Below are positions 10,301-61,347 of a stretch of 64,000 nucleotides of DNA, one piece after another. A program made the translations under genes and the position numbers. Source of the DNA: Proteromonas lacertae (lineage: Eukaryota); assembly GCA_002245135.1 (NCBI GenBank), contig NGBS01000013.1, positions 1-64,000 on the forward strand, read 5' to 3'. The first letter of the stretch is position 1; every line of letters starts with the position of its first letter. The notes beneath the pieces were generated by a model. It was given only the letters and a program-made list of their open reading frames with translations, was not told the DNA's origin and made no database searches.

Positions 10301-13300
10301 GGAAGAAGTATTTTTAAATTCAGCAAAGATTGAAGATGCATTAGTTGCTCAAGAAGTAATAAAAGATAGAGAATCAAGGACATCAAGAGTAGAAGTGCAA
10401 AAAGAATATCGTCAATATAATAGAGCTAGTGCTGAGAAAAAGAATATGTTTATGATTCATTTTGGAGCATTATTAAAGAAGAGAATTTTATATATTAAAA
10501 GAGATGTGAAAGGTATTTTGTTTCAAGTTATTGTTCCTGTTGTTGTGATGGCAATTGGATTGTTGTTGATGGGAATTGATTTTATTACACAACCACCAAT
10601 GTATATCTATTATTATTATATTATTTATATTATTTTTTATAGTTATGCAATGAATACCCATGATTATAACAAGAAGATTGAAAATGCAACTGATAGATAT
10701 AAAACTCAATTTCCATTTGATAAAGTAACAAATCCAGCTTTTAGTACAGTTTTTGATCACTTGAATAAGAATGATGTTGTTCCTGTTTCGGTAGACACTT
10801 CTTTGTATTATACAGATGAAACTTGTATGCATGAGAATGCTTTTAAAACATTGACTGATGAAGAAAAGAAGAGAAATTGTGCAATTGTATATAATTATTA
10901 TTTAGTTTATGTTTGTAATATTTTTAGTTAAATGCCAATACGAATTATGCAGTTCCATTATTTGGAATGTATGAATATCTTTTATCAACAATGTCCACAT
11001 ATGAATCAACACGTTATTTAGCTGGTGTAGAAGTTCCTGATTTAGAATCAAATGGAATAGTATCTTATATCTTTGTAAATACCTCAAGTGGACATGGAAG
11101 TTCAATTGGTTTGAATTTACTGAATGAAGCTCGATTAAAAGAATATAGTAAAAATTCTAATGCAGTGTTAAAGACATCTGGATCTGTATTGCCATTTACA
11201 TCCAATCAACTCAAAACAGCAGAAGGAATTAAGGGATTAAGTTCACCAATGATTATGTTATTAGCACTTGCATTTATTCCAGCTTATTATGTCTCATTTT
11301 TAGTGAAAGAAAAAGAAGTTGGAGTGAAACATCAACAACTGATTAGTGGTGTTAGTTTATCAGCTTATTGGACTTCTACATTCGTGTGGGATATAGTTTC
11401 TTATATTATACCGTATATATATTACAATTAATTTATATTTAGATGTGTATTTGGTATTGTATTTATGTATATATTCAATCTTAAAGCATTTAAAGATCAA
11501 ATTGGTGCTGTGATTGTAGTTTTTATTCTTTATGGATTAGCTATAGCTCCTGCTACCTATTTTGTATCATATTTCTTTAAGAATCATTCAACAGCTCAGA
11601 ATATTGTTTTATTCGCTAATATATTCATGGCAATCTTCATGACTATCGATTTCTTATTAAGTATGTTAGATTCTGCTTGTAGAGCTGGTGAAGTAATAGA
11701 GTATATTATATATATAATATTCAATATTTATAATGCTTAGATGGTTCTTTATGCTATTTCCAGGTTTCAATTTTGGTATGACGATGATGAGAATTGGAAT
11801 GTTTGAGCAATTGCCAATGATGAATTCAATGTGTGATATGTATCATGATATTCCAGTAGATACTTCAAAATTTAATGCAGATCATAATGCATTTGAATTT
11901 GATATGATTGGAAAGTTTATTCTATTCTTGGGATTAGAAGTTATTGTTTATGGTTTCTTGGCTATTCTTGGTGATTATGTATTATCTTATCCACTGTTAA
12001 AACAGAAAATACTTCCAGACAAAGATTTGCCAATGAGAGAATATGTAGATGATGATGATGTAAAGAAAGAAGCTGAAAGAATAATAAATAAGCAACCACA
12101 TGAAAGTGGAAAAGAAGAAACAATTCAAATTCGTGGATTAAGAAAAGTATGGAATAAAAAGAAAATAGCTGTTGAGAATTTGAATGTTGGATTAATTCCT
12201 GGAACTTGTTTTGGTTTTTTAGGAATAAATGGAGCAGGTAAAACCACAACATTAGAAATGTTAAGTGGAGATATAATTCCAACGAAAGGAACAGCGAAAA
12301 TCAACAAATTGGATATATTAACAGATCAAATTGAAGTTAGAAGATTATTAGGATATTGTCCACAATTTGATGCTTTATTAGATTTACTAACAGTAAAAGA
12401 ACATTTATATTTATATGCCAAAATCAAAGGTGTTCCAGATGATATAATTGAAGATGTAATAAATGAAAAGATCGATCAAATGGATTTAGGAAAATTTGTG
12501 AATAAAACAGCTGGATCATTAAGTGGAGGAAATAAACGAAAGTTGAGTGTAGCAATTGCCTTAATAGGAAATCCTCCATTAGTATTCTTAGATGAACCAT
12601 CAACAGGAATGGATCCAGTAGCTAGAAGACATATGTGGGATATAATAGCTGATATAACAATCAAGAGATGTGATACAACAATAATCTTAACAACTCATTC
12701 AATGGAAGAAGCTGAAGCATTATGTACATTGGTTGGAATAATGGTAGGTGGAAGATTGAGATGTTTAGGATCTTTACAACATTTGAAGAATAAATTTGGT
12801 CAAGGATTTATGTTAGAAGTAAAATTGAATGATAATAAAGAAGAAGAAATGCAAGAAATAATAGAAAAGATGAAAAGTGTAAATGGTGATAGTTTAGTAA
12901 AGAATGATATAGAGAATATATGTAAAGAATTAGGAAAAGAAAGTCGATTTGATTTAATCAATGAAGTAGATAGTGGTTGGTCAATATTTTGTGAATTGAA
13001 TAAACATGGATTAATAAGTAAAAGTTTCTTTAGTGATTGGTGGAAGTTGGAAGATCGAGTAGATGAATTAAATGGCAGTTTAAAAGAAATGTTTGATAAG
13101 ATTGAATTATTAGAAAGACATGATAATTACTTGAGATTTAAGATTGATGTGAATGATATAAAGTTGGGTGAATTATTTGGTTTAATCGAAGGAAAGAAAG
13201 AAGAATTATCAATCAAAGAATATAGTTTTGCACAAACATCGTTAGAACAAATCTTTAATTCCTTTGCTTCTCAACAAGAAGAAGAAACTGGAGAAGTGAG

Positions 13301-13394
13301 AGGTTTAAAGAAACAAAAATCAACAAAAGTAGAAGATAATAGTAAAAGAGTGTCTAGAAACTCAATTTTGGCTTTTGAAGTTGAACAAATATAA
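7330..13394 (+). CDS. ABCA-subfamily full-size ABC transporter, copy 2 (multi-exon)
   Basis: ORFs 7839-8309, 8341-8706, 8967-10931, 10967-11431, 11465-11740 and 11733-13394 are joined by ~30-nt introns. Two NBDs with Walker A/signature/Walker B, and EKEKKIREGM and EKEVGVKHQQLISG ABCA motifs. Confidence 0.92.
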
Positions 13395-15550: not shown

Positions 15551-17520
15551 TTATTTGTTAATATTATTATCTATAAATAATAATACGTTATCAAAGTTAT
15601 CTATCTTTTTATTTAATAAATAAATAAGAGTGATAATAATTAACTGTCCGTCAAATGAAATATTATTATAATTATTATTAATAAATAAACAAAAATCATG
15701 TTTGTTTATTCTATCATACATTAATGAAGTTAATTCATCATATATACCTGTAATACAGTATTGATCAATTTCATTGATGATATTGACATTAAAACATTGT
15801 TTAATACTTTGACATGTCATATTAATTTCGCTTTCTGAAATAATCAATCTATTACTCTCACAATATCTTGATATATCATTTTCATTATTACCCTCATTAA
15901 CAGTACTATTATAATTTTGACTTTCTTTATCAATAATTTCATTTATATCTTCTGGATATTCTAAACGACCATTATAATTTGTAATATTAGTTTGACTATT
16001 AAAATAATCTTTGAAGCACTCGTTGGATATCATTTCACTTATACAAACATTAATATTACATCTTATTCTAGCATATAGAATGTGATCGCAAGGAACACCG
16101 CTTACTTCTTGATAGCCACATGAACAAATAAGAGTAGAATCGTTCCTTGATATATAAAATTCGTTATTCACCACATAGCTGTTTTCATCTTCTTTATATG
16201 CAGTATAGTAGTTTTCAGACAACAGCTGCAATTGATTATACAAATTTGAACTGCATTCTTTCCATAGAATTGATGAATAATATAAACATTCTTTTTCTTG
16301 TATTTGGTTGTTTATTTCATCAATTTCTTCTTTATATAAGTTTTGTAAAACTTCTAATAATCCATCAAATCTCACTCTTTTATTATATAATTCTTTTTTT
16401 ATTTTATAATTATTAAATTCTACATTTCCTGTTGAATGAATCCCATATATTCCATACTGCTTTATTCCTTCTTTAGTAAAATATACTTTATATTTATCAT
16501 CGGCTTCATCTACAATTTTTTGTTTTTCGCTTAAACTAGGAGCTTTAATATACTTGTATATTATTCTTTTTAACTCTGTTTCTTTCAAATACAGAAATAA
16601 ATGATAAGTATCAAACACGAAGTTTATACCTAAGCTTCTTAAGACACTGACAACAGCTTTTTCTTTGTCATGCACAACGTTTATTATGTTGCAATACTTC
16701 TATAAATGGCCATATATAAACAGATAATCTTCTTTATTTCTTGTAGTCATAATTGCATAAGCAACTAACAATATTAGTTTAGGTGATACAGCACAATAAA
16801 CCAAATAAAGCTGCTCTTTTCCAAGCAAACAGTTAAATGTTCCATCAGCTAAAAGCGTTGTGTACTTCTTTAAATGTTTTTCATCCATTATAACCAACAT
16901 TACTGATTTACTTTTATAGTATTTATAATTATTGATTATCATTTTAAAAAATTTGTATTTACCATCAATTATATCTTTTAGATTCTTTTTTTCTGTAATT
17001 ATTTGATTTTTATTTGTTGTTTGACTTCTTTCGATATTATATATTTCATTTCTATGATTTTGATTATATTAGGTACCTTTAAAGCGCTGTTATTTACTAA
17101 TATATTAACGTCATTTTTTATTTCACTTGTCATTGTTTCTATCATTTTTAAACTCTCATATTTTCTTACTTCATGATTATGACTTAACCTATAGCTACAT
17201 CCTGTTAGTTTATATTTAACTGTAAAACTACATCCAACTTCTTTGCAGTAGAACGCTAATTCGTTAACATTATAGTGAACTCTGACTTTGAAATTTCTTT
17301 GACGGCTGTATATATGCACTACAAAATAGAAAATCTCCATGTTTTTGAACCTGAGCTGAAATATATTATCATTAATTTCTTCAAACGATTCTATGGGAGG
17401 ATACTTTTTTGCTATCTCTTTAAGTCTTTTACTTCTGCCGTCCAGAATTGAATACTTCTTCTCAGCTGTTGAAAATGTAGGTAAATCTACCTCGCCATTA
17501 TCAATTATCAATTTATTCAT
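15551..17520 (-). pseudogene. MULE DDE transposase with N-terminal C2H2/WRKY-like finger and C-terminal SWIM finger; interrupted
   Basis: FYCKEVGC...HNH, LADGTFNC (D1), VVHDKEKAV (D2), STGNVEFNN (E), CSCGYQEVSGVPCDH (SWIM). Frameshift near 17.0 kb and in-frame TAG at 16700-16702. Confidence 0.82.
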
Positions 17521-37691: not shown

Positions 37692-40600
37692 CTAAAATTC
37701 ACTATCCCAATTTGAAGTTGATCCTTCATAATGTGGTACTTCCTCTTCAGGATCATTACATCCAAAATTAGAATAATCTACTTCATCTTTCACTGGAGGA
37801 ATCCAAGGCACATCGTATTTCTTCTTCATTAATCTTTTCCAGTCAATATCTTTAAACCAAATATTATCTTTTATATCTCTAACACCTCTTCTTAAACATC
37901 CCATTCGACGGTTCACATCAACTGTCAATAACTTTTGAATTAAATCTCTAGCTGCAAAATCGAAGAATTTTGGTGGAAATTCTAGTACGCCTTCTGTAAT
38001 CTTTTGGAATAATCGATCTTCTTGTTGTGCTCTGAATGGTGCATGACCACATAACATTTCATAGATTAATATGCCAAATGCCCAAATATCGCACGATCTG
38101 TTGTAGCCTTTACCTGTTAATACTTCTGGAGCTAAATATTCAGGTGTACCGCATAATGTATAAGTTTTATCTCTTATTTCTTTAGCAAAACCAAAATCTA
38201 TCATTTTGATATAACCTTGAGTATCAATTAAGATATTTTCTGGTTTTAAATCACGATGGACTATTCTTTTACCATGGATATATTCTAATATTGATAAGAC
38301 AGAAGCAGCATAGAATTGAGCTTTAATTGGCCTTAATCGATGTCTAATAAACAATTTAAAATAATAATTATTATAATATATATATATATATACTTAGGTG
38401 TTCTTCTTAATAAACCATATAGCTCACCACCTTGAGCATATTCCGTCAACATATACACTTTCTCACTGTCTTGGAAAGTTCTATATAATTTCAATATAAA
38501 TGGATGATCTAAAGATAATAATATATTCTTCTCATTTACTACAGCTATTTCTTGTTTTTTGTCAACTATTGTGTATTTATGCATTGCTTTTAATGCATAA
38601 ATATCATTTGATTGTGGATTTTTTACTAGTGTAACTCGACCTAATACTCCAGTTCCTAGTAAGGCAACTGTTTCTAGTTTATCTAAGGTGAGTGATTTCA
38701 TTTTGTCATTTACTTGAGATTGTTCTCTCAAATCATCGGCTTGACGTTTTTGAGATGCGCTTTCTTGAAGTTTTGACTATTGTTAATAATAATAAGAAGA
38801 AGTAAATTGATAGAAAAAAAAGAGGGAAAAAAAAGATAAGAGATAAATAATAATAATAATAATATATATATAATACTAATATTGGTGCAAACAATGTGCT
38901 AAACTCCTTCGCTCCCAATACAAATACATCCACTTCAGTCTCAGCAATGGCATTGGCAGTTCTCAAATCATTCGTTACCAATGCAATTTCACCTAAATAA
39001 CTACCATTACCACACTTACTAATAGGAATTTGACCAGTTGGAGTATTCTTCGTTATATTTACACATCCTTCACTTATTATAAAGAACTCATTACCTTGTG
39101 TACCTTCTTCAATTAAATATTCACCTTTGGAATATTTCCTTCGTCTTAAAGCATGTGCTAATGATTCAATTTCTGTATTAGAAAGTGATCTAAATAGTGG
39201 AACTGATCTGAGAGTTCTAGTTACAGAATGTTGACCCATAATATCTTTCAAAGGACCAAACAGTTTGATGAATGATTGTCGATCTAATGTATAACATGTT
39301 ACAGTAGTTACTGCTATTACATTAGCTGTTCTTCTATCTTGGGAGTATAAAGCTAATTCTCCAAAGTAACTACCTTCATCTTCAATCTTTCGAATGAATT
39401 GTTCGATTGGTTGTCCATCTTTGTCGACAGTTTTAGTAACGTCACATATTCCGCCATGTAAAATATAAAACTTATCACCAATTTCTCCTTGTCGAATTAT
39501 ATAACTACCTGAAGTATAAGTTTCTAATACAAAAGCTTCATCTAATTGTTCTAATTCCTGATAACTCAAATATTGTAACAATGGTATAGATAATAACGCT
39601 TTTAATCGATTATTATGATCGATCACATCACCGATATCACCGACTACTCGAACAAAATCGTTGTAATGTACAGTGATGCATGTTAAGTTACTCGTTGCTC
39701 TTACTGTATAAGTGGGATTTTTATGTTGTAATGTTTCTTCACCAAAACTATCTTCTTCTTTGAGTTCAGTTTCTTTACCATTTCTGTCTTTGTATTTGGC
39801 TGTACCTTTCTGGATTATATAGATAGTGAAGTTCTTTGTATCTGGTGAGACTAAAATGTCATCTGTTTTGTATTCTTCCACTCTGACTACTTCTGCTACT
39901 GAGGCTAATTGCTCTTCAGTCAGTGATTTCAAACAATTCAAATTCTTCAAGTAATTTTGATAATTTGTTGATTCTTTTTCGGAGAGTTGTGCAACAATTG
40001 CTCTGAATGCAGCACGGTCTAATACCCAAACTTTGCTTGGCATAGAGCTCTGGACAGTGGCTGAACATGGACAATTATATAATAACGCTAATTCACCAAA
40101 TAACTCACCAGGACCTAGTTTATTTACCATAGCATTGCCTTTGGATTTTTCATAAATGCAAAATTCGCCTGATTCTATCACATAACAGTTATCACCCATA
40201 TTGCCTTCTATGATGATATTTGTACCTTTAGAAACTAATAAACAGTCCATTGAATCAATAATTGAATCTTCCATCTCTTTATCTAAGAATGAAAACAGAA
40301 AATGACTTTTTAATGCTTTGGATATCAATTCTCTTGTTTCTGGTGGTTTTCGATTGTGTTGTATTACACTCGGTATTGCTGATGTGGAAGGTCTTGATGG
40401 ACTAATACCCATTAATGGTTTTCTTTTTAAATCAACTTGTTGCAAATCAACGGGTGTTTGTGGAGCTAAATCATCTTCTTCTGCTGATTGTGAACATACA
40501 CTTTTTGTGGATCTGTCTGAAGAATTTACATAATTACTTCTATTTCAATAAATATGAAATTATAATTTAATATAAAATATATACGATGTTCTAGCAGGCA

Positions 40601-40937: not shown

Positions 40938-42041
40938 ATGACTGATATAAAGAAACTAATAGTTAAAATACAAGAATTACAAGACTTACATGGAGTAGAT
41001 CTAGAAGATCCTGCAGCTAGAAAAGCTGCAGCAGATGTATGCTTACAAAAACAGAAAGAAGTTCAAAAAGGAATAAATAGCATTCGAGATGTATGAAGTT
41101 TTATAACTATTTTAATAGCTTGTTAAAAAGAGAAACGCCTTAGTTGATAGAGGTGGTAATAGAAGGTTAATTATAGAATTAAATTCAAATATAAGAAGAG
41201 AAATTAATACTGTTATAACTTCCTTTACAGAATTAAGTAAATTGATGGATAAAGAAATGAAAAAGAGAAGATCCAAATTAACACCAGATGAAAAGAAGTT
41301 CCGACAAGATATAGTTCAAGATCTATTAGATCAACTAGAAGAAATAAAAAAATCAGCAGATGAAAAAGTTTCAAGTATATTTCCTATAAATCATTAATAT
41401 TTTATACCATTATAATAGAACTGGATGAAAGAGATGAAGATTTCATGAGTGATGTAGGTGGAATCATCGAGATCAGAAACGTAGAAGAAGCAGTTCCACC
41501 AGGAGCAGGAACAGGTTTTGGAGCTGAATCAGGTGGTTCAAATATAACTCCACAACAACAACAAAAAATACCATTACTACCTAAGAATGCTAAAAATGCA
41601 TTAGTAGGAGGTGGGTCTTCAAATCCCTTCGGTGAGCCAGGCGGTGGTACTATTGATGCACCTACAGGTGGAGGTGGTGGTCCAGAATTAACTGATGAGC
41701 AAAGACAAGGCTTGGCACAGATTAAACAGAATGATCAGGAATTAGACGAGATGGTGAAGCAAATAGGTGATGGTTTGGATGTTTTATCAGTATTTTTGTG
41801 TTTTTTTATTGTATTATAGGATATAGCTAATACAATGGGTGATGAATTGAAGAAACAGTCAGATAAATTGGATCAAATAAATGAACATATGGATAAAACT
41901 CAAGATAAATTAGATCGTAATGTTAAAAAGGCTAAAGAGACGCTTGAAACTGCACAGGCTGAAGATCGTTTTTGTATCAATCTGATTCTTATTGTGGTTA
42001 TAATTGGGGTTGGAGTATTGATATACAATTTTGTAAAGTAA
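40938..42041 (+). CDS. Qc-SNARE / syntaxin-like protein
   Basis: Helical N-terminus, SNARE motif QNDQELDEM...MGDELKKQSDKLDQI and a C-terminal TM LILIVVIIGVGVLIY. Confidence 0.75.
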
Positions 42042-42136
42042 TTTGTGTTATATATATATATAATAAATTTTTATATGCTTGTTTAGTAAAAATGACATTT
42101 TAAAGACAAACAACCAACAAAAATTCGTTACAAAAT

Positions 42137-45058
42137 ATGGGTATTTGTACTTCTGATTTGAATAAAGTAGGGGCTGTCTATGATGATGTAGCCACTATTC
42201 CAGTAGTACCTAAAGAAACTACTGATAAGACAGTAGCTGCTCCGCCACCTGAAGTGAAGGAAGAAGAGAAGAAAGAAGTGGCAATAACAGACTCACAAAA
42301 ATTACTGGAGACTCAAAAGAAGGATAAGCATCAAATACCATTAAGAAAGAGACAGGTATATTCATTAATTATACTCATTTTAGTATGCCGTTATTGATGG
42401 TGCTAATCAAGCAGTAGATGAACATGAAGTGTATCATGTAGTGCCTAAGAGTGATGATATCATCCAGCTAATACGAAAATCAATGAATTCCCACCCAATA
42501 TTTAATAACATGGACGAAATCCAAATAACAAGAGTCATAGATGCAATGATCAAAATAGAAGTACCAAAAGGCTCTATATGTAGTCAACAAGGTAAAGTTG
42601 GTAGATCCTTCTATGCAATTGAAACAGGTCAATTTTCAATGAAAACAGTCCTTCCAGATCATACAGAATCCAAGAAAATGCTCGGACCAGGGGAATCTTT
42701 TGGTGAAATCTTCATTTTCGATACTCCAAGAATGAATACAGTTATAGCAGAAACAGGTGGTATCTTATGGACAATAGAAAGATCAACGTTTAGAAGAACA
42801 CTTGAAATCTATGAAAGAATGAAGATTAAAGAAAGAATCAAGTTTTTAAGAGAATTGTCTTTATTTTCCTATTTAACATCAGATGAAATGACAAGATTGG
42901 CAGAAGCATGTATTTATTTATACTACGAAGCTGGTGAAAAAATCATAAATAAAGGTGATAAGATAAATAATCAATCTGATTTCTATATTATCTGTCAAGG
43001 TGAAGTAGTCTGTACAGATCCAGACAATCCTGGTGAAGAATTAATTTTGGGGATAGGAAAATTTTTCGGGGAAAGAGCATTTTTAACAGATGAACCAAGA
43101 TCTAAAACAATTACTGCAAAAACTGATGTAACATTAATAGCTTTAGATAAAGAATCATTTATTAAATTATTAGGTCCGGTAGAACCCATTTTAAGCAGAT
43201 CTTTAGAATCATATGGAACAATCATATTAAAAGAAATTCCAATTCTATCATTCCTTACTCAAGAAGAAAGAGATGAAATATTCCAATTAAGGCATGAAGT
43301 TACCTATAAGAAAGGGACAGTAATTTATCATAAAAACAGTGATGTAACTAATTTCCATATAATCATGAAAGGAAATGTAGTAAGATCATATTTGTACAAA
43401 AAGGACAAAAAAATTGTGCTGTATATATATTTATTTATTTATTTATTTATATTATATATTTGAAATATAGTAAAAGAATGGCATCATCAGAATCTATAAC
43501 TTTATTAGATTCAAGATCATTAGGAATTGGTAAAAAGCAAACTGATGAAGAAAATAAAAACAATAATCAGCCTAAGACATTAGATGTAACACCATCAGCA
43601 ACAATAACAATAACCAACAATACAGAAATGAAACGAAATTCTTCCTCTGAAAATGTAAAAAATAAGAAAACAAACATCAATAATCCAATTTCTAGAATAA
43701 TGCATGAGAAAGAGAGAAAATTACAAAGTGATTTTGTAATGAATGAACATGAAATGAATAACAGTTTCGATTTAAAACCACGAAGACAATCTGAATGGAC
43801 TGAAGCTGAGAAGAAAGAATATGTTAATGAGGTGTTGTCAAAGGGAGATTATTTTGGTGGAACTGCATTGATGATGAATAAAGGAAAATCGCCTTACACT
43901 TACACTGCAGATACTGATGTTGAATGTATGACAATATCATCATTAGATTTTGAAAAAATCATTCAAAAACCCAATGCAAGAAGATATTTAAAAAGTTGTT
44001 TATTAGCTGATGATTTCAATAACAATAATAAAACAGTATTTGAAGAGAATAAGACCAATCAGAATAGAATTACCAGCGTCAGCGATTTCGATTTTATTCG
44101 TTATCTAGGTAAAGGATCCTTTGGTATGGTTGTTTTAGCTAAAAATAGAGTTACTAATCAACAATATGCATTGAAATGTATTAAAAGAGAAAGCTTATTT
44201 AAAGATAAAAAGGAATGTAAAGATGTAATTATTTCTGTTTTACAGGAGAAATTGATTCTTTCAACTTTACCTCAATCTCCATTTATTGAACAATTCTATG
44301 GCGCTTCTGTGGATGAGAAGTTTTTGTATTTTATTATTGAATATATTGATGGAGGAGAATTACATTCGCAAATGTATAATATTCATGGAGAACCATACAT
44401 TCTGAATGAAAATGTTGCTAAATTTTATTGTGCCAATATCGTCATCATGTTATCTGATTTACATAAAGAAAGAATAGCCTATAGAGACTTAAAACCAGAA
44501 AATTTAATAGTAGATGCAAAAACAGGATATTTAAAACTAATTGATTTTGGTTTTGCTAAACAAGTATTCCGTAAAACATGGACATTATGTGGAACACCGT
44601 ATTATTTAGCTCCTGAGATATTATGTTGTACTGGCCATGATACTGGAGCTGATTGGTGGACGTTAGGTATTGTCTGTTACGAAATGATGACTGGTGAAAC
44701 TGCATTTAGTGGAAAAGATCCATTAGAAACTTTTACACTGATATTGAAAGGTAATATTGATTTTACAGCTGGTTATTTCTCTAAAGCTCAAGAAGATTTA
44801 ATTAGAAAGTTATTATGTAGATCAAAGACATTGAGATTAGGCAATTTGAGTAATGGAGCTGAAGATGTAATGAAACATGAATGGTTTAAAGATATTAATT
44901 GGGAGGATATGAGAGAATTGAAAATAAAAGCACCACCTCCACAATCACCACCAACTTCAAAGAATGAGAATAAACATAGTGAATTATTCCAAAATTTAGG
45001 ATATGGTGATAGTCATTGGATTGATGGAACAATGTTACAAGGATTTACTCAGTTTTAA
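42137..45058 (+). CDS. cGMP-dependent protein kinase-like with probable N-acylation signal
   Basis: MGICTS N-terminus, cNMP domains (FGEIFIF, FGERAFL...PRS, FGGTAL) and kinase GKGSFG, YRDLKPEN, DFGFAK, TLCGTPYYLAPE. Confidence 0.85.
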
Positions 45059-51981: not shown

Positions 51982-52046
51982 TAGTAAAATGGAGGGAAAT
52001 GAATTATAGTTTGGTATAAGAATGTTAATTTAAAACAAAACAACAG

Positions 52047-52120
52047 GTCGTGATGGTGTAGTTGGTTATCACGTATCCTTAACACGGATAAGGTCTCGGG
52101 TTCAAACCCCGATCGCGATA
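52047..52120 (+). tRNA. tRNA-Val(AAC)
   Basis: Acceptor GTCGTGA/TCGCGAT, anticodon arm TATCC-TTAACAC-GGATA, T arm TCGGG-TTCAAAC-CCCGA and downstream T-run. Confidence 0.93.
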
Positions 52121-52982
52121 CTTTTTTTTTCTTTTTTCTCTGCTTTTTATAATTCTATAAATTTAGTTCAAATAATAATTTTAAATATTTAAGTAATATA
52201 ATTTTGTTTAAATTTATTATGTGACATTTTTGCTATGAATTTTATGAATAATAGTCTATACAATCTATATGTCAGTGAAAATATTGTAAAATGTTTAGCA
52301 TCAACGTTTATTTTGCTTGTGTACATCATTTAAATAATATTAAGTGAATTATGAGAAATAAATAAAAATAGAAACGAATATAATTATTTATTTTTATGTA
52401 ATTATTTCTGATTTATCAACAACATTTACAGCTAATTATGTATGAAAAAAGTGTTGCTGAAGCATTCATCAAATACAACATACCAACCTCACCTATTCAA
52501 AGTCAAACACAAATATTTACATATACACCAATTTCACCAATTCAAAGAGTAAATAAAGCAAACTGCAAAAAAACTAATCTACCTCACCAATCAATAAACT
52601 AAATCTAAATATACACTAAATACCCTAAATATACACTCGCCTGCAGCACAAATGTTGAATAGATTGTAAAATTGTATAAATTTGGCTTGGTATAATAAGT
52701 ATCTTGAACAATTGAAAATTTATTAGAGTATAATCCTAACAGTATATTATAATATTGTTGTAAATATCGTTCTCTACCAGGTTCTGCTTTGATGATATCA
52801 ATAACATAATCAGCTAATTCGTTTACTAAAATTTTAGCTATGAATATTGACAGAACATCATCTAACCAAAGAATTATTTTATGATGAGAATCTCTAAAGT
52901 ACATATAAAAAAAATATATATTTATATAATAAGCTTATTAATCAATCTATTATCCCAATATCTCAAGAAAAACAATATCAAA
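52084..52982 (+). repeat. ~0.9 kb direct repeat, copy 1 (tRNA-Val 3' half + downstream sequence)
   Basis: Matches 59263-~60152 with scattered substitutions and a small indel. Confidence 0.92.
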
Positions 52983-53113
52983 CCAAACCCCATAATTCCA
53001 ATTTAATATCATATAGTCAATATTTCATTTATATTATAATAGTTCCTTATGATACTAACAATGGCAATACAATTTACTTATATGTAGATCATAATATCAA
53101 CCCATTTCAATGT

Positions 53114-56092
53114 TTGATCCTGAATTACCCTTACAGAACCATTATTAGCTTGAATTTAGATTATATTTACCCTTGTCATACCAAAACATATTTCATTAAG
53201 AGCTCCACTCAACTTAATTCCTATAACCCTAAGAAAACATTATACTCTCAATATCGTGCCATCCTTATATTAATCCCTGCTTATATAAATAATAACAACA
53301 CCTCCTGTTTATTTGCATACTTCAGTAGTAACTCACTGCAAAATTCAATCCTGGATTATGCTTACAAAATTACTATTAGCTTAAATTTAGATTATCCTCA
53401 CCTCAACAATGATACATTATATTTTATTCTGCTCATATTTTGGAATGCTCAACTAATTAACAAATGGAAGCCTTCAGACTACATTCATAACATTATTATA
53501 GACCATGACTATACCAGAATCATCCCTTATACCTTATTAAAACCTTATCACAAATATCACCATAAATCAATCAACCTTCATAACTGTTACCCTAATTACA
53601 TTAATACATTATCCTCAAATAAGGTATCTAGTGTAGTTTTCTCACCAATATTATCAATGACAGATATATTAACATATTATTCCAATTATTGTGCATCCAT
53701 TAAAGTTCAGATAACACAAATATCAATCTTACATTACAAAGGAGGGAATAAGGATAAAACAGCTAGTAGTTTAAACAATACACAACAAGATATTATACCC
53801 CTTAATAACTTAGGTAATACTTGTCATATCTCTTCAACATTCCAGTTACTTTATTCCATTGATACATTTAAAACTATTTGTAATAATGAGATATACACAA
53901 ATTTAGAACAAGAGTCAATAGTAAAGGCTTTTAACAAAGTAATTACATCTAAAAATATCACACCCTTAGCAGAGATTCTACATTTAGATATTAATGAACT
54001 TGGCAATGCTTCAGATAATATCATTATCATATTAAACTCCTTCAAAAATATTTTGGATGGTAATATTGAAATAAAAACACAATACTCTTGTGCTAGCTGC
54101 AAGTGTAAATATGATGAAATAATAACAAGAACATCTTTTCAAATTATTCTAAATGGATGCCTTTCTGTCCTTAATATGGAAAAGTTAACTAACTATAAAA
54201 AATGTAATATACACTGCAAACAGTGTAACAAGGATTCTACAACAATAACAAAATCCATTAATTCATTTCCAAAAACCTTAATCATTAACATCGAAAGAAC
54301 ATCACACGATCAAAGAATAATTTTTCAAAGATCCCTAACATTCAATAAATCTACTAGTTATACATTAACTTTTTTAGTTTTATTTACTGGTGATTATACT
54401 GGTGGACATTATACAACAGCAAGATATATACAAGGTAAATGGATTAATATTAGTGATAATAATATCTATCACATTGATAATATTTATAGTATGACAAAGG
54501 AAGTAGTACTATTATTATATACAAAAGAAGATCCTTCAACATTAACAAAAGTTAATACACCAATTTCAATAAACAACCCAACAAGTAACATAAAACCTAA
54601 TCCAATTCAAACAGCTATGCTTCGTACAGATGGAGGAGCAAGAAATAATCCTGGTGAAGCAGCAGCAGCAGCTTATATAGTATTCAATGATAAAGAATAC
54701 AAATTATATTCATACTTTCCTAAAGCAACCAACAATGAAATGGAATATACAGGTTTAATCATTGGATTAAGAAAAATTAAAGAACTAAAAATCAAAAATG
54801 TAGATATAATACTAGACTCAATGTTAATAGTTAAACAATTAACTAATAAAGCAAATTGTAACCATCCGAAACTTCAAAAATTAAAAGAATTAGTATTAAA
54901 AGAACTATCGGAAATAAACTTTACAATAACACACCAAAAAAGGAAATACAATGTAGTTGCTGATGGATTAGTTAACACATCAATAGATAATAAATCATCA
55001 TGTATTGAAGATATTAACATAAATGACATCCTTAACATTATTATCCAACCAAATAGTAATAAAAATAACATTCCAGATACAATTTTAAATCCACCTAAGA
55101 GAAGTTATAATACAATCAAATGCTCTATCTGTAACAAAGAATATAAAGCAAATTGGATACAAAGACATATTAATACAGTACACAAACACATATTCAAGAT
55201 TGTCAAAACTCCAGATATATCACCAAATATAAACAATTCAACTGAGTTAATAGATGAACTTAATAAGACTATTATGGACAATATACCTATTCAAAGTCAA
55301 ATACAAAATATTAAAAACAATGAAATCAAAATATTAAGTGAAGATAAACATGTGAAGACTATTTCCATTAATAATGAAATATTTAGAAGAGACATTATAT
55401 CTCAGCCTAATCCAACAGAAGAAAATAATAAGTTTATATATAGTGAAAGTACCAACTCTAATACCAATATTAATGATTCTATAAAATGCAGATTTTGTTC
55501 TCGATGTTTTAAATCAAAAGTAAGTAGAGGTCAGCATGAACACCAAACCCACCCAAATGAGTTTTATGAAACATTTAGAAAAGACAACCCTTTCAGTAAT
55601 CCTAGACCAGAGTTAAACCCAAATACTATAAAACCAAATGAGACAGAAGTAAAAATAGATAAAACAAACAAGAAAAAATCAATATTTCAAAAATTAGAAG
55701 TTTCAGAAGATGAATTTTGGAAAGGTTTTTACTTCCCAGAACTATATCAATTACAGATAAAACCTGAACTTGATAAATATGAATTTATCAATCAAATTAC
55801 ATACCCTACTGATCCAAAAAGAAGAAATCAATTACTAAAGAAATTAACCAAAAAACTTATACCAATCTTTAACTGGTTAAGAATTCTTCCATCAGAATCC
55901 ACAATATCAACTAAAGGTATAACAGAGGAAGACTTCATGTTTATTAACCAACTATATAACAAAACAATTTCAATAATCCAAACAACTATGAACCCTACAT
56001 CAAATAAAAAACCAGATTATAGTAAATTAAACTATAAATATCAAAGAAATGAGTATGATAACAACAATACATTAAAAGAGCGTCAAAAATAA
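53114..56092 (+). CDS. Retroelement polyprotein N-half: USP (peptidase C19) domain, RNase HI domain, two C2H2 fingers
   Basis: Cys box LNNLGNTCHISSTFQLL (~53800) and His box GGHYT...WINISD (~54400). RNase H TDGGARNNPG...TNNEMEY...LDSMLIVKQ...NVVADGL. Fingers CSIC..HINTVH and CRFC..HEHQTH. Confidence 0.85.
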   Translation: MILNYPYRTIISLNLDYIYPCHTKTYFIKSSTQLNSYNPKKTLYSQYRAILILIPAYINNNNTSCLFAYFSSNSLQNSILDYAYKITISLNLDYPHLNNDTLYFILLIFWNAQLINKWKPSDYIHNIIIDHDYTRIIPYTLLKPYHKYHHKSINLHNCYPNYINTLSSNKVSSVVFSPILSMTDILTYYSNYCASIKVQITQISILHYKGGNKDKTASSLNNTQQDIIPLNNLGNTCHISSTFQLLYSIDTFKTICNNEIYTNLEQESIVKAFNKVITSKNITPLAEILHLDINELGNASDNIIIILNSFKNILDGNIEIKTQYSCASCKCKYDEIITRTSFQIILNGCLSVLNMEKLTNYKKCNIHCKQCNKDSTTITKSINSFPKTLIINIERTSHDQRIIFQRSLTFNKSTSYTLTFLVLFTGDYTGGHYTTARYIQGKWINISDNNIYHIDNIYSMTKEVVLLLYTKEDPSTLTKVNTPISINNPTSNIKPNPIQTAMLRTDGGARNNPGEAAAAAYIVFNDKEYKLYSYFPKATNNEMEYTGLIIGLRKIKELKIKNVDIILDSMLIVKQLTNKANCNHPKLQKLKELVLKELSEINFTITHQKRKYNVVADGLVNTSIDNKSSCIEDININDILNIIIQPNSNKNNIPDTILNPPKRSYNTIKCSICNKEYKANWIQRHINTVHKHIFKIVKTPDISPNINNSTELIDELNKTIMDNIPIQSQIQNIKNNEIKILSEDKHVKTISINNEIFRRDIISQPNPTEENNKFIYSESTNSNTNINDSIKCRFCSRCFKSKVSRGQHEHQTHPNEFYETFRKDNPFSNPRPELNPNTIKPNETEVKIDKTNKKKSIFQKLEVSEDEFWKGFYFPELYQLQIKPELDKYEFINQITYPTDPKRRNQLLKKLTKKLIPIFNWLRILPSESTISTKGITEEDFMFINQLYNKTISIIQTTMNPTSNKKPDYSKLNYKYQRNEYDNNNTLKERQK

Positions 56093-59023
56093 AGGCTAAA
56101 CAAGCTCCAACAATACAAGAGTATACTTGATAAAATTAAATCAAACCCAACAAATCTTAATTATTACATAAAGAAACTATGGATTGATCATCAAATTTAC
56201 ATCAAAGAAAACACAACAAAAGATATTACACAAGTTATAAATACACTTACAGAAGAAGTAGAAGAAATAATATTAGAAAATAACTTGAATAATATTGGAT
56301 TTACAAATAATTCTTCATCCCTAGATGATGAATACAAAAACCACAGAAAAAGTTTCATATCAAAATTATTTAATGATAATCAGAGAGATGTAAAACTAGA
56401 TATTAGAAAGATGGAAAAGATGTTTAATATTCTAAATAATAGCAACATAAACTGGAACACTCAAATCGATACTCCAAAATTCTGGAAAGACATCCAAGAA
56501 TTGTATCCATCAGAAATAAATATGGACATGAACATTACAATAAAAGATTATATGGATGCTATAAGGCACACAAACATCAATTCTGCAGCAGGTCCAGATG
56601 GTATACCATACGCTATTTACAAAGATTGTGAAATATTATCAATAATAATGGTAAAATTCTTTAACTTATTTACAATAAGCGGAAACATCCCGACATGGTG
56701 GAACAAAACAAAGACTATATTAATTGATAAAATGAAAGAAAATGTAAATGAAGTAGGAAATTGGAGACCAATAAGTCTTCAATGTACCATTAGCAAAATA
56801 TATACCAAAATTATAAATTTTAAACTGATGAACACAATAAAGACCCAAAAGATTCTTGAGCCTGAACAAAAAGGATTCATTAGTAAGATTGCTGGCTGTG
56901 AAGATCATATCTTCACAGTCCAGTCTATTATTACAGACATGAATTCAGGATTAAGTGAGAACCAAGTAACCATGACACTCCTAGATCTGCAGAACGCATT
57001 TGGCTCTATACCCCATAATATTATTCAGAAAATATTAACTATAATGAAATTTCCTAAATCATTTATAAATATAATAAAAGCATTCTATACCAATCCAACA
57101 ATGAATTTATATATCAATGATAGATATTCAAATACAATCAAAATTCAAAAAGGTGTAAGACAAGGAGATCCTATATCTCCCTTAATATTCAATCTAATGA
57201 TTGACCCATTAATCAAATTAATCAAACTTAACAATGTAGGTTATAAATACAAATATGACAATTCCTTAGAAGTAGTATGTTCACTCTATGCAGATGACTT
57301 AATATTATTTACAAACACAATAGAGGACATGAAAAAACAACTGAACACTGTAAATGAATATTTAAACTGGAGTAAACTAAAACTAAATCCAGAAAAATGT
57401 GAAACATTTTACAAAAGAAAAACTAGTACTAAAACATACTATAGTAACCCGAATTTGATTATTAACAATCAATTTATACCATATGTTAAAGCTGATAGCA
57501 ATTTCCACTACCTAGGATCATTACTACATATAAAGAATTCTATATTCCAAAGAGATGATTTTACAAATCAAATTGAAAATATTAAAAAGAAAATTAATAA
57601 ACTTAACCAAATTAATATACATCCAGCTTACAAATTAAACATACTAAGAACTTACATCATTCCAACGATAAAATTTTCATTAAGAAATCAAACAATCAAT
57701 CTGACAGAATTAGATAAGTTAGATAAATTCATTACTAATAATATTAAAATGTGGATAGAATGCAATCAAATCACATCGAAAATATTTCATCTTAAATGGA
57801 AAGATGGAGGACTTAATATACCACTATTAAGTGAACGATACTTAATAAACAAAGCAGTGTTATTTTTAAAACAATATTACAATCCAGATCCTAAATTAAG
57901 AAAGATAATTCAATATAAATTATTCTGTATATTTAAACAGAAGAAATTAAAATTATACAATAATGATAATAATGAAATTCAATTTCTCAGATTTTCTATG
58001 AACAATCAATTAGAACTCCTGACCATAGATGATAAACAGACAGTAAAAAACTTAAAAGCAACCATTGTAGACAATTTAATCCACCTTCAAAAACACCTCA
58101 AAATCCAAATCATAGAAACTAAAGGAGGTGAAATATTATTTCAAGACAAAGATGGATTAATTATGAACAAAGTCAGTAATGATTATCAATCAGCATCACA
58201 ATTATTTAAGAATTTGTCACAACATCTGTATAGTATACATAAAGCAGATTGGTGTAACAATGAAGATATAAAACTACAAAATATTAAATCAACATTCTTA
58301 CAAAATAATAAAATCAACAATAAATGGATAATTAATCCGAAAGGAATAAGTGCAAGACAGTATAACATAATGTGGAAAATCAGAACAAATACAATGATAT
58401 GTCAAGATAATCTTAATATTTGGAAACTATCAAAAACTAAAATATGTCAAAGATGCAAGAAAGATAAGGAAAATTATATTCAGAACAACAAACATGTACT
58501 ACAAAGTTGTAAACCACTTTTGTTATTATACAGAAAACGTCATAATAAAATATGTTACAGATTACACAAATTATTTGAATATTCAAATAATTTCAAATGT
58601 TTTAGTGATATTACAGTAAAAAGATTTATAAATCATTTAAGTCCTAATAATGAAAAGCTAAGACCAGATCTAATATTAATTAATAAAAATATTAAGCAAA
58701 TGATCATAATAGAAGTAGGTATTGCTTATGCAGAGGTTAAAAATAATATATCATCAATGATAAACACAAGAAATATGAAATATAATAAATATAAATCATT
58801 ATTGGATGAATTAGAATTAAATGGCTGGCAAACGAAAATGCATGTGATCATAATGGATTCAACGGGAATTATTGATAATACATCATATAAAGAGATTACT
58901 AATATAATTATTCAATATACTAATATTAAATTAAAATCAATTACCTCAATTATACAAAATATTCAATTAGATATGGTATATTCTGCTATAGAGATGTTCC
59001 ATAGAACAACAATGATATGGTAA
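56093..59023 (+). CDS. Retroelement polyprotein C-half: reverse transcriptase, CCHC knuckle, restriction-like endonuclease
   Basis: SAAGPDGI, NWRPISL, EQKGF, LDLQNAFGSI, GVRQGDPISPLIFN, YADD, YLG, CQRC..HVLQSC, RHNKI, RPDL..IIEV and KYNKY. The frame is open from 56093, the same frame as the upstream ORF. Confidence 0.92.
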   Translation, partial: RLNKLQQYKSILDKIKSNPTNLNYYIKKLWIDHQIYIKENTTKDITQVINTLTEEVEEIILENNLNNIGFTNNSSSLDDEYKNHRKSFISKLFNDNQRDVKLDIRKMEKMFNILNNSNINWNTQIDTPKFWKDIQELYPSEINMDMNITIKDYMDAIRHTNINSAAGPDGIPYAIYKDCEILSIIMVKFFNLFTISGNIPTWWNKTKTILIDKMKENVNEVGNWRPISLQCTISKIYTKIINFKLMNTIKTQKILEPEQKGFISKIAGCEDHIFTVQSIITDMNSGLSENQVTMTLLDLQNAFGSIPHNIIQKILTIMKFPKSFINIIKAFYTNPTMNLYINDRYSNTIKIQKGVRQGDPISPLIFNLMIDPLIKLIKLNNVGYKYKYDNSLEVVCSLYADDLILFTNTIEDMKKQLNTVNEYLNWSKLKLNPEKCETFYKRKTSTKTYYSNPNLIINNQFIPYVKADSNFHYLGSLLHIKNSIFQRDDFTNQIENIKKKINKLNQINIHPAYKLNILRTYIIPTIKFSLRNQTINLTELDKLDKFITNNIKMWIECNQITSKIFHLKWKDGGLNIPLLSERYLINKAVLFLKQYYNPDPKLRKIIQYKLFCIFKQKKLKLYNNDNNEIQFLRFSMNNQLELLTIDDKQTVKNLKATIVDNLIHLQKHLKIQIIETKGGEILFQDKDGLIMNKVSNDYQSASQLFKNLSQHLYSIHKADWCNNEDIKLQNIKSTFLQNNKINNKWIINPKGISARQYNIMWKIRTNTMICQDNLNIWKLSKTKICQRCKKDKENYIQNNKHVLQSCKPLLLLYRKRHNKICYRLHKLFEYSNNFKCFSDITVKRFINHLSPNNEKLRPDLILINKNIKQMIIIEVGIAYAEVKNNISSMINTRNMKYNKYKSLLDELELNGWQTKMHVIIMDSTGIIDNTSYKEITNIIIQYTNIKLKSITSIIQNIQLDMVYSAIEMFHRTTMIW

Positions 59024-59057
59024 TAATATTATAAGATTAATATTATAATATATATTT

Positions 59058-59072
59058 AAAAAAAAAAAAAAA
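59058..59072 (+). repeat. A15 tract in the 3' UTR of the retroelement
   Basis: 15 consecutive A, 35 nt after the RT stop. Confidence 0.8.
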
Positions 59073-59262
59073 TTATATATTCTTATACTTATAATATTAG
59101 TGGACAAAATAGAAAGTATATAAAATCTCTAAATGTTGCTAATTAAACATTAAAATAATCATATTAATAAACATAAATTGACTTTGAATGTAAGGTGATA
59201 ATTGTTCAATATAATTAAATAGCTAACTAAAAGGCGATCGGGCATCCCTAATTGTTACTTAA

Positions 59263-59299
59263 ACGGATAAGGTCTCGGGTTCAAACCCCGATCGCGATA
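59263..59299 (+). pseudogene. 3' half of tRNA-Val(AAC), from position 37 onward
   Basis: ACGGATAAGGTCTCGGGTTCAAACCCCGATCGCGATA is identical to 52084-52120; the 5' half is absent. Confidence 0.92.
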
Positions 59300-60152
59300 C
59301 TTCTTTTTTCTTTTTTCTCTACTTTTTATAATTCTATAAATTTAGTTCAAATAATAATTTTAAAATATTTAAGTAATATAATTTTGTTTAAATTTATTAT
59401 GTGACATTTTTGTAATGAATTTTATGAATAATAGTCTATACAATCTATATGTCAGTGAAAATATTGTAAAATGTTTAGTATCTACGTTTATTTTGCTTGT
59501 GTACATCATTAAAATAGTATTAAGTGAATTATGAGAAATAAATAAAAATAGAAACGAATATAATTATTTATTTTGATTAATTTTTCTGATTTATCAACAA
59601 CATTTACAGCTAATTATGTATGATAAAAGTGTTGCTGAAGCATTCATCAAATACAACATACCAACCTCACCTATTCAAAGTCAAACACAAATATTTACAT
59701 ATACACCAATTTCACCAATTCAAAGAGTAAATAAAGCAAACTGCAAAAAAACTAATCTACCTCACCAATCAATAAACTAAATCTAAATATACACTAAATA
59801 CCACTCGCCTGCAGCACAAATGTTGAATAGATTGTAAAATTGTATAAATTTGGCTTGGTATAATAAGTATCTTGAACAATTGATAATTTATTAGAGTATA
59901 ATCCTAACAGTATATTATAATATTGTTGTAAATATCGTTCTCTACCAGGTTCTGCTTTGATGATATCAATAACATAATCAGCTAATTCGTTTACTAAAAT
60001 TTTAGCTATGAATATTGACAGAACATCATCTAACCAAAGAATTATTTTATGATGAGAATCTCTAAAGTACATATAAAAAAAGATATAAATTTATATAATA
60101 ATCTTATTAATCAATTTATTATCCCAATATCTCAAGAAAAACAATTTCAAAA
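59263..60152 (+). repeat. ~0.9 kb direct repeat, copy 2
   Basis: Direct copy of 52084-52982; the same minus-strand ORF MYFRDSHHKIIL occurs in both. Confidence 0.92.
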
Positions 60153-61164
60153 CGCAACAACCTTTAATTTTATTTTGCAATATTCTTCCTTTCATACAAA
60201 TTATATATATTTATCCTTAGATCTTAAAGATATATTTAGTATCAATGTATTACACGGCATTCTGATAAATTGGATAATAAAATAGCTATAAATGACCATT
60301 ACAGTGCATATCCACTTTATTTTCAATTGAAGGCTATATTTGCACTTTACAGCAATTGTTGAAGGGCCAGAGGTTAAGTTTATGATATTAGAATTGAAAA
60401 AAGTCTTCTTAACGCTCAACGGCGCATTTAGCTCAACGGCGCACAACAATTACTACATATCGTGGTAAAATTGAATAATATTGGTTGGATTGAAGAATTG
60501 TGCAAATGAGCACTTCCCCTACAGGCTAAATATATATTTAAGTTGTTTGTAAGAATTGTAATGGACTGGGATTTATTTTGTAGGCCCAGGTTGATATTTT
60601 GAAATACATGTTAAATGTGTATATTTGACTGAACTGAAGACGCTAAATTGATAACATAAATATTTACTAGGTATTAAGATGAAATTTGTGGTCTTTGATA
60701 CTAATTGTCTTATGAGGTTCTTTAATGGTTTGAGTTTTGCTTTTTATTAATTCTTTATTTTATATATTATATTTGTTTGTTATATAATTATCTATTAATC
60801 GTATAATTTTCAAACAAAGGTTAAAGTCATTATACAACATTATGATTATACATAATTAGCTGTAAATGTTGTAATAAAGCAGAAAAAAATAACATTCAAC
60901 TATATAGTCGTTTCAATTTCATAATTTTTGTTATAAGTTAAATAACTTTGTTTAAACTGTATTTATTTACAACAAAAACGTGTATATGAAATATATTAAA
61001 AATTAAAATCCACTATTATTCCATTCCTACTAATTTATTGAATAACCGTTTAAAAAATATAAACCTATCTACTTTATTTCATTTTATTCATTTACTATGA
61101 AATAAAAATATTTAAATAAATCTAAAACATAATAGGAAAAAGAGTTAAAAATAGAAAAAAAGAG

Positions 61165-61238
61165 TATTGAGATCGGGGTTTGAACCCGAGACCTTATCCG
61201 TGTTAAGGATACGTGATAACCAACTACACCATCCCAAC
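61165..61238 (-). tRNA. tRNA-Val(AAC), second isodecoder
   Basis: The reverse complement has the same body as 52047-52120 but acceptor GTTGGGA/TCTCAAT; downstream T-run. Confidence 0.93.
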
Positions 61239-61347
61239 CTATAATTTCGACTAAAATTGACATTTTTATACTAATTTAAATTTAATTTTGAAAAATACTT
61301 CATTCAAAATACCCTTCATACAACATCAATATATTATTATTATTAGA

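Follow-up and report, generated by a model that had tools for sequence, protein, structure and literature searches.

A non-LTR retrotransposon in a tRNA-Val gene of Proteromonas lacertae carries a ubiquitin-specific protease domain

Introduction

The first 64,000 nucleotides of contig NGBS01000013.1 of the eukaryote Proteromonas lacertae (assembly GCA_002245135.1, forward strand), called the window throughout, contain a retrotransposon that has no long terminal repeats (LTRs; a non-LTR element) and encodes a restriction-like endonuclease (RLE). In its reading frame, a ubiquitin-specific protease (USP, peptidase family C19) and an RNase H precede the reverse transcriptase (RT). This arrangement, first described from the letters alone (the sequence-only reading), raises the question of whether the deubiquitinase is a genuine part of the element and, if so, what it does there. 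We conclude that the identification of the element and its ownership of the USP are nearly certain. Our overall reading, to which we give a probability of roughly 0.6, is that this RLE retrotransposon lies in a tRNA-Val gene and that its N-terminal USP, predicted to be active, likely deubiquitinates the protein or particle of the element and thereby prevents its degradation. Papers are cited by PMC number, and what is said of them refers to the available parts of their text.

Results

Architecture and reading frame of the element

The element occupies 52986..59262 of the forward strand, about 6.3 kb, between the two copies of a flanking duplication. It has neither LTRs nor an integrase, and its domains from the USP to the RLE are all encoded in one intronless frame (52898-59023, 2,041 codons). 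The order given by the sequence-only reading, namely USP, RNase H, two C2H2 zinc fingers, RT with YADD, CCHC knuckle and PD..E endonuclease, was borne out in this frame, and the profile scan that it proposed found UCH, RVT_3/RNase_H and RVT_1, all above the Pfam cut-offs. Its bounds of 53114..59023 were too narrow, since the open frame begins earlier, near 52986 at the 5' junction, and the element ends at about 59262. The 5' end at 52986 is itself approximate, and the element is possibly 5'-truncated. While the domain list was correct, the polyprotein that had been taken as continuous is split by an overlooked in-frame TAA (Table 1). Because of this internal stop, the window copy is likely broken and dead, or else that base is a sequence error. 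A ciliate-type genetic code was ruled out, as there is a single stop in 2,041 codons, and programmed readthrough is not favored because the frame of a relative, denoted P0002, is continuous across the stop position.

The region upstream of the USP is a leader whose lack of stops has a chance probability of 3e-8. A Pfam scan of the leader gave no known domain, and its similarity to the leader of P0002 was not significant, being equalled by 55 of 1000 shuffles. The 66-bp repeat within it lies at 53099-53164 and 53330-53395. The absence of a Met before 53657 may reflect 5' truncation or a non-AUG start. At the other end of the element, the predicted fold of the 3' untranslated region (UTR) was not above that of shuffled sequences (z -0.3).

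The USP is carried by related elements

Using the RT-RLE half as a query, we retrieved 278 proteins, of which the best 120 were listed. Three of these 120 (P0002, P0003, and P0004) carry a USP in the same open reading frame (ORF) as the RT and RLE, each as a single ORF with N-terminal zinc fingers, and full-length, near-identical members are present in each of the three clusters. P0002 (1,940 residues) shows the entire order of USP, RNase H, two zinc fingers, RT, CCHC and RLE, with no interruption where the window copy has its stop, whereas P0003 (2,048 residues) and P0004 (1,701 residues) consist of USP, zinc finger, RT and RLE without RNase H. P0155, a 256-residue fragment with 49% identity, represents a third RNase H-bearing family and stops short of the USP region.

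A profile built from the four USP rows matched only their four clusters among 315 proteins. As this profile is circular, the independent tests are the search with the window USP alone, which retrieved P0002 (E-value 6e-49) and P0004 (6e-13), and a fragment in the P0004 cluster that matches Pfam UCH at 3e-10. When the alignment of the four rows served as the query of a word-based search, P0004 was the sole clade member among 14 matches. When the USP and RNase H were used together as a HMMER query against 1.84 billion representatives, only P0002 spanned both domains among the best 150 of 6149 matches. Matches of 400-900 residues in several stretches were considered as further USP-RNase H fusions and rejected, as they are tandem RNase H proteins, with no UCH in the 36 scanned of those 150. 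Among metagenome contigs, 80 loci were kept of 312, with best-segment identities of at most 33%, and a USP was found in 0 of the 80. A word-based search with the USP alone gave no close stand-alone USP relative (0 of 751 candidates).

Identity between the USP domains follows that between the RT domains, at 44% and 58% for P0002 and at 21-25% and 33-37% for P0003 and P0004, respectively, which is the pattern expected of joint inheritance. From this distribution we infer that a single acquisition of the USP would have preceded the split of the four families, and that the RNase H would represent either a later gain in one branch or a loss from the other. The earlier view of the USP as part of the element holds, in that a single ORF encodes both domains, USP and RT, in three independent relatives; the USP might instead have been missing from other copies, as a fragment of an adjacent host gene would be, and P0002, P0003, and P0004 all carry it.

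The USP domain is minimal and appears intact

Pfam assigned residues 302-541 to UCH with an E-value of 1.6e-11, above the cut-off. The Cys and His boxes, which the sequence-only reading had called apparently intact, contain the oxyanion Asn304, Cys309, His504 and Ser519/Asp520, and the catalytic Asn, Cys, His and fourth-position Asp are kept in all four USP elements. USP16, USP30, and USP45, which are active, likewise have a Ser at the third catalytic position, and the Asp after it is often critical (PMC10867860). The domain further contains a four-Cys zinc site (C398/C401/C440/C443). In the AlphaFold model, with a predicted local distance difference test (pLDDT) score of 82, every listed Foldseek match in the PDB was a member of the USP family (best E-value 1e-18, template modeling (TM) score about 0.73). 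We thus predict, with good confidence, that the USP is catalytically active in intact copies.

The nearest ESM Atlas clusters of the USP are compact USPs of giant viruses (Nucleocytoviricota; 0.96). These are likewise minimal, with 250-290 residues, and the best viral fold matches have TM scores of 0.7-0.78. However, their identity to the element USP is only 13-21%, and cellular USPs fit equally well (TM score 0.73-0.77), so the fold matches provide no evidence for a viral origin.

RT, endonuclease and RNase H

The RT was matched by Pfam RVT_1 at 5.4e-37, and the closest solved structures are R2 proteins. The model of the RT-RLE half (pLDDT 88) also matched R2 proteins best (E-value 1e-41, TM score 0.72). 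In a 46-row alignment, the CCHC, RH, PD and the first K of K..KY were invariant, in agreement with the CCHC and RLE motifs described for R2Bm (PMC4838377). The identity of the element as an RLE-type non-LTR retrotransposon is thus confirmed by the RT, the CCHC and a PD-(D/E) endonuclease with RH and K..KY. An APE domain or its relic was found in none of the four USP elements by a profile that matched 6 of 6 held-out APE controls. Ulp1 (C48) is absent from the window element by Pfam, although Pfam finds C48 in other RT-RLE matches.

The RNase H (residues 574-693) matched RVT_3 at 6.1e-15 and RNase_H at 2.5e-07. Residues D578, E616, D640, R682, and D689 form the D-E-D-R-D signature of archaeal-type RNase H (PMC4640811), so the earlier assignment to this type was correct. 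In unconstrained trees, the RNase H of the element stood apart from that of oomycete Utopia, while a forced single clade gave a p-value of 0.175 in the approximately unbiased test (p-AU). The domain looks independent, although the tree is compatible with a shared origin.

Three further arrangements were observed among the retrieved proteins. P0154, P0156, P0157, P0165 and others belong to a family in which archaeal-type RNase H domains are repeated in tandem, two or three per protein, frequently with a SAP domain ahead of them. P0031 is an RLE-type polyprotein on its own long branch with an RNase H of a different type upstream of the RT, a further independent gain of RNase H. P0074, an RT-bearing protein of 1,787 residues, has an N-terminal 2OG-Fe(II) oxygenase (AlkB-like) domain (E-value 8e-31).

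The USP elements form a separate branch in RT trees

All four elements with a USP fell on one side of a branch in a FastTree analysis of 126 rows (SH support 98) and in IQ-TREE mixture-model analyses of 49 and 33 rows (99 and 98, respectively), the two smaller sets being hand-picked from the 126 and analyzed by quick search. This clade branches within an unresolved basal fork of the sampled RLE rows and is not part of the supported group that includes both the RNase H-bearing rows of oomycetes and the rows with Ulp1. When the two RNase H-bearing USP elements were forced together with the oomycete rows, the tree was rejected (p-AU 0.0001). The Utopia and NeSL labels on these trees derive from source names and domains (for the oomycete rows, the RNase H position) rather than from flanks, and the sampling is without labelled references (Repbase, Dualen, R2, R4, CRE, and HERO) and without the proteins of NeSL-1_TV, LIN15_SM, and LIN25_SM. 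Other rows with biased composition (P0006 and P0044) stay outside the clade. The trees thus suggest a distinct RLE lineage with an element-borne USP, apparently undescribed. The sequence-only reading had proposed such a lineage; its separation from Utopia-like and NeSL-like rows stands in the RT trees, while the term "undescribed" is provisional.

The element lies in a tRNA-Val gene flanked by an 899-bp duplication

The insertion site and the flanking duplication had been overlooked earlier. At 59262, the 3' UTR ends and is joined to tRNA-Val(AAC) in its anticodon loop. The five terminal bases of the element match the tRNA bases just 5' of the join (but one). The flanks of the two converging tRNA-Val(AAC) genes (51997-52456 and 60835-61288) are 68-78% alike. 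In the absence of the element, about 1.9 kb would separate the two genes, and the 5' junction would lie roughly midway between them. No U2 snRNA was found in the 64-kb window.

The segment repeated on both sides of the element could be older than the insertion, either as a tandem duplication of tRNA-Val in which the 5' part of the second copy was lost at the 5' junction of the element or as two joined alleles, and this explanation is slightly favored. The two copies differ by 15 substitutions and six gap openings, one of them at the very end (1.7% divergence), whereas the 5.4-kb ORF between them contains one stop and no frameshift. These differences are patchy and clustered at both ends, with a single substitution in the 473-bp middle (P 0.004), and the tRNA-Val unit has been duplicated before (60835-61288). 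At the substitution rate of the flanks, 2.5 stops would be expected in the ORF, with which the single stop is compatible (P 0.28); this counts against an older repeat. The missing frameshifts compare with about 15-18 expected indels unadjusted, or about 4-5 when scaled by hand for the flank homopolymer density, which is 3.7-fold higher than that of the ORF.

That the repeat was made by the insertion itself, as a target-site duplication, is somewhat less than an even chance. Its geometry is that of a target-site duplication, starting exactly at the 3' junction and ending at the 5' junction. Dualen makes duplications of such length: the median for Dualen-4b is 900 bp, tentatively ascribed by the authors to APE plus RLE, while R9 makes one of 126 bp (PMC9977147). 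A stronger version is unlikely. In it, a deep, undescribed RLE lineage would carry an active USP, have the tRNA-Val anticodon loop as its target, and leave the tRNA unharmed through the routine duplication, with a single endonuclease, of some 0.9 kb of downstream DNA.

Within the duplicated segment we found a decayed USP coding relic of 82 bp, which is 73% identical to 54243-54324 (E-value 6e-7) and 61% identical at the protein level, with one stop. Twelve of its 22 differences are at third codon positions, and its score exceeded those of all 206 control windows. The relic suggests that an older relative landed beside the same tRNA earlier, which supports targeting. It is probable that tRNA-Val is the target of the element family rather than a one-off site. 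A 23-bp near-match between 52491-52513 in the duplicated flank and 55285-55307 of the element was also noted; its score only equals the best control. An 89-residue minus-strand ORF in the middle of the duplication was considered as a host exon and rejected, as it has no Pfam support and the same bases hold the plus-strand relic.

Table 1. Features of the retrotransposon and its insertion site in the window
Feature	Position	Strand	Remarks
Intact tRNA-Val(AAC)	52047..52121	+	ARAGORN, Rfam; 3' half begins left duplication copy
Left duplication copy	52084..52982	+	899 bp; tRNA 3' half and downstream DNA
Decayed USP coding relic	52799..52880, also 59967-60048	+	82 bp; inside duplicated segment
Stop-free in-frame leader	52986..53740	+	251 codons; first Met 53657; contains 66-bp internal repeat
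Gly-Gly motif	53741-53746	+	At leader end
USP / peptidase C19 domain	53801..54520	+	Pfam, motifs, fold; minimal size
Archaeal-type RNase H	54617..54976	+	Pfam and D-E-D-R-D; upstream of RT
C2H2 zinc finger 1	55121..55183	+	Residues 742-762; kept in P0002, first part also in fragment P0155
C2H2 zinc finger 2	55487..55552	+	Residues 864-885; kept in 4/4 aligned elements
In-frame TAA	56090..56092	+	Only internal stop; relatives read region as one ORF
Reverse transcriptase core (QGDP, YADD)	56741..57517	+	Pfam RVT_1; YADD at residue 1464
CCHC zinc knuckle	58445..58510	+	Residues 1850-1871; invariant in 46 rows
Restriction-like endonuclease and ORF end	58538..59023	+	RH, PD, E1939, K..KY
3' UTR	59024..59262	+	No poly(A) at junction
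Right duplication copy	59263..60151	+	Starts in tRNA-Val anticodon loop; tRNA 3' half only
Second intact tRNA-Val(AAC)	61164-61238 within 60835..61288	-	Older inverted duplication, uninterrupted

Other features of the window

The window has eukaryotic features, namely introns, 22-32% GC and SSRP1 and kinase neighbors. A motif count bearing on the host lineage gave 16 occurrences against 6.4 expected, a value reached in 1 of 100 shuffles. Two divergent, closely similar genes at 984-5112 (-) and 7767-13394 (+) were named from motifs as ABCA-type transporters. Another divergent pair, at 38733-40544 (-) and 41364-45058 (+), has cyclic-nucleotide-binding repeats and a kinase domain and was named, likewise from motifs, as cGMP-dependent-kinase-like. 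A 382-residue frame at 15551-16699 (-) with a weak SWIM zinc finger (E-value 0.012) is possibly a remnant of a Mutator-like transposase.

Discussion

Comparison with known retrotransposons

A ubiquitin-type protease in a retrotransposon is a known theme, with precedents in Ulp1, Josephin, and OTU. Dualen/RandI of Chlamydomonas is likewise a non-LTR element that combines an RLE and an RNase H with a cysteine protease of deubiquitinase type at the N-terminus (PMC9977147, PMC8557442, PMC4640811, PMC13405545). The sequence-only reading had taken the combination of deubiquitinase and RNase H in an RLE element as new; it is known from Dualen with Josephin (PMC8557442, PMC9977147, PMC4640811), while the C19 family itself is apparently new in this setting. 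In addition, Dualen/RandI has both APE and RLE, whereas the window element has no APE, lies in a tRNA gene and has its RNase H upstream of the RT, a position called unique to oomycete Utopia (PMC4640811). A Josephin-like motif is described in one Chlamys family (PMC8557442), and Josephin and OTU in ORF2-like proteins (PMC13405545).

Oomycete Utopia shares with the window element a single ORF, a D-E-D-R-D RNase H upstream of the RT, zinc fingers, CCHC and RLE, and it also inserts in a small-RNA gene, although its target is U2 rather than tRNA-Val (PMC4640811). In contrast, the window element has a USP, and a common RT clade with the oomycete RNase H-bearing rows was rejected (p-AU 0.0001). NeSL and Utopia-1_TSP also carry an N-terminal ubiquitin-like-protein protease in an RLE polyprotein (PMC4640811), but this is Ulp1 of another family (C48), and Ulp1-bearing rows fall elsewhere in the RT tree. 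In NeSL-1_TV (tRNA-Pro), LIN15_SM (tRNA-Arg), and LIN25_SM (tRNA-Glu), the 3' end of an RLE element is likewise joined within a tRNA gene that has the orientation of the element, whereas the tRNAs and positions are different, the 5' junctions are within the tRNA and not 900 bp away, and the available text reports no USP (PMC4640811). A C19 peptidase is fused to a DNA transposase in Trichomonas, which is a USP-family domain in a transposon but not in a retrotransposon; OTU and Ulp1 domains also occur in DNA transposons (PMC2836005).

In the literature found, no USP/C19 in a non-LTR retrotransposon was described, Repbase and subscription journals being outside the search, so "undescribed" is provisional. 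The available parts of PMC6431247, PMC5718144, and PMC9940879 name no USP in non-LTR elements, and those of PMC12129017 offer nothing about such elements. An identical, already catalogued architecture, which would have contradicted the sequence-only reading, did not appear within the same limits. The apparent novelty lies in the C19 protease family, in its pairing with an archaeal-type RNase H located upstream of the RT, and in the lineage itself.

Possible role of the USP

By analogy with R2-type biochemistry, the zinc fingers would bind the target DNA, the RLE would nick the anticodon loop of the tRNA, and the RNase H would remove RNA from the cDNA; R2 itself is without RNase H and displaces the RNA (PMC12203849). 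The RT would copy the RNA at the nick by target-primed reverse transcription, aided by the five-base match at the 3' end. The USP would remove ubiquitin from the protein or particle of the element, which would then escape degradation. As the main substrate, the element's own protein or particle is a tentative choice at slightly less than even odds, preferred because non-LTR proteins repeatedly have a protease at their N-terminus, drawn from four families that are unrelated to one another. The repeated capture of unrelated ubiquitin or SUMO proteases by retroelements suggests a generic need, for example protection from degradation, and such protection has been suggested for the Josephin domain of Dualen (PMC8557442).

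Several observations weigh against our overall reading. Most RLE relatives have no such protease (a USP in 3 of the 120 listed RT matches), so transposition in itself does not require the USP. In all three relatives, UCH went undetected when the whole protein was scanned with Pfam; the window USP alone missed P0003, where the USP was assigned by its motifs and by 37% identity to P0004. The amino-acid composition is biased in all four members of the clade, which can pull rows together. The case for target specificity consists of one junction and a short relic, and the second tRNA-Val, 2 kb away, is empty. Finally, the present evidence may fit action on chromatin or repair factors as well as it fits self-protection.

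The USP might deubiquitinate histones or DNA-repair factors at the insertion site so that integration can be completed. Fusion to a DNA-cutting protein would bring it to the break, and such a role was proposed for the Ulp1, OTU, and C19 domains of DNA transposons (PMC2836005), but Pfam scans found no nucleosome- or PCNA-binding module, and we consider this role unlikely. It is still less probable that the USP processes its own polyprotein by cutting after the upstream Gly-Gly, as papain-like proteases with this fold do in viruses. In the window element and P0002, the Cys box region follows, at a distance of 20-26 residues, a hydrophobic-x-aromatic-basic/Leu-Gly-Gly motif, and the leader ahead of this motif has no known domain. 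However, the motif is missing upstream of the P0003 USP and is thus present in two of the three elements with enough leader, P0004 starting too close, and 5 of the 120 listed RT matches, mostly without a USP, show the loose pattern somewhere in their first 700 residues. That the USP is a neighboring host gene fragment, fused by chance or misassembly, can practically be dismissed: the stop between USP-RNase H and RT does make two separate ORFs in the window, but both halves lie in the same frame, without introns and inside the duplication, and USP and RT share one ORF in three independent families with several full-length cluster members each, which refutes this explanation unless P0002, P0003, and P0004 are all assembly chimeras.

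Implications

With this element, USP/C19, the largest deubiquitinase family, joins the Ulp1, Josephin, and OTU proteases in non-LTR elements. The domain is easily overlooked, as whole-protein Pfam scans miss it in all three relatives. If the 0.9-kb duplication is typical, it bears on second-strand cutting, and if it is routinely made with one endonuclease, it would overturn the need for the second (APE) nuclease of Dualen. For work on site-specific insertion, an RLE protein that targets a tRNA gene and brings its own RNase H is a further candidate. The addition of the USP strengthens the case for ubiquitin-based control as a general pressure on retrotransposons, an idea that a stand-alone USP of 250 residues makes directly testable.

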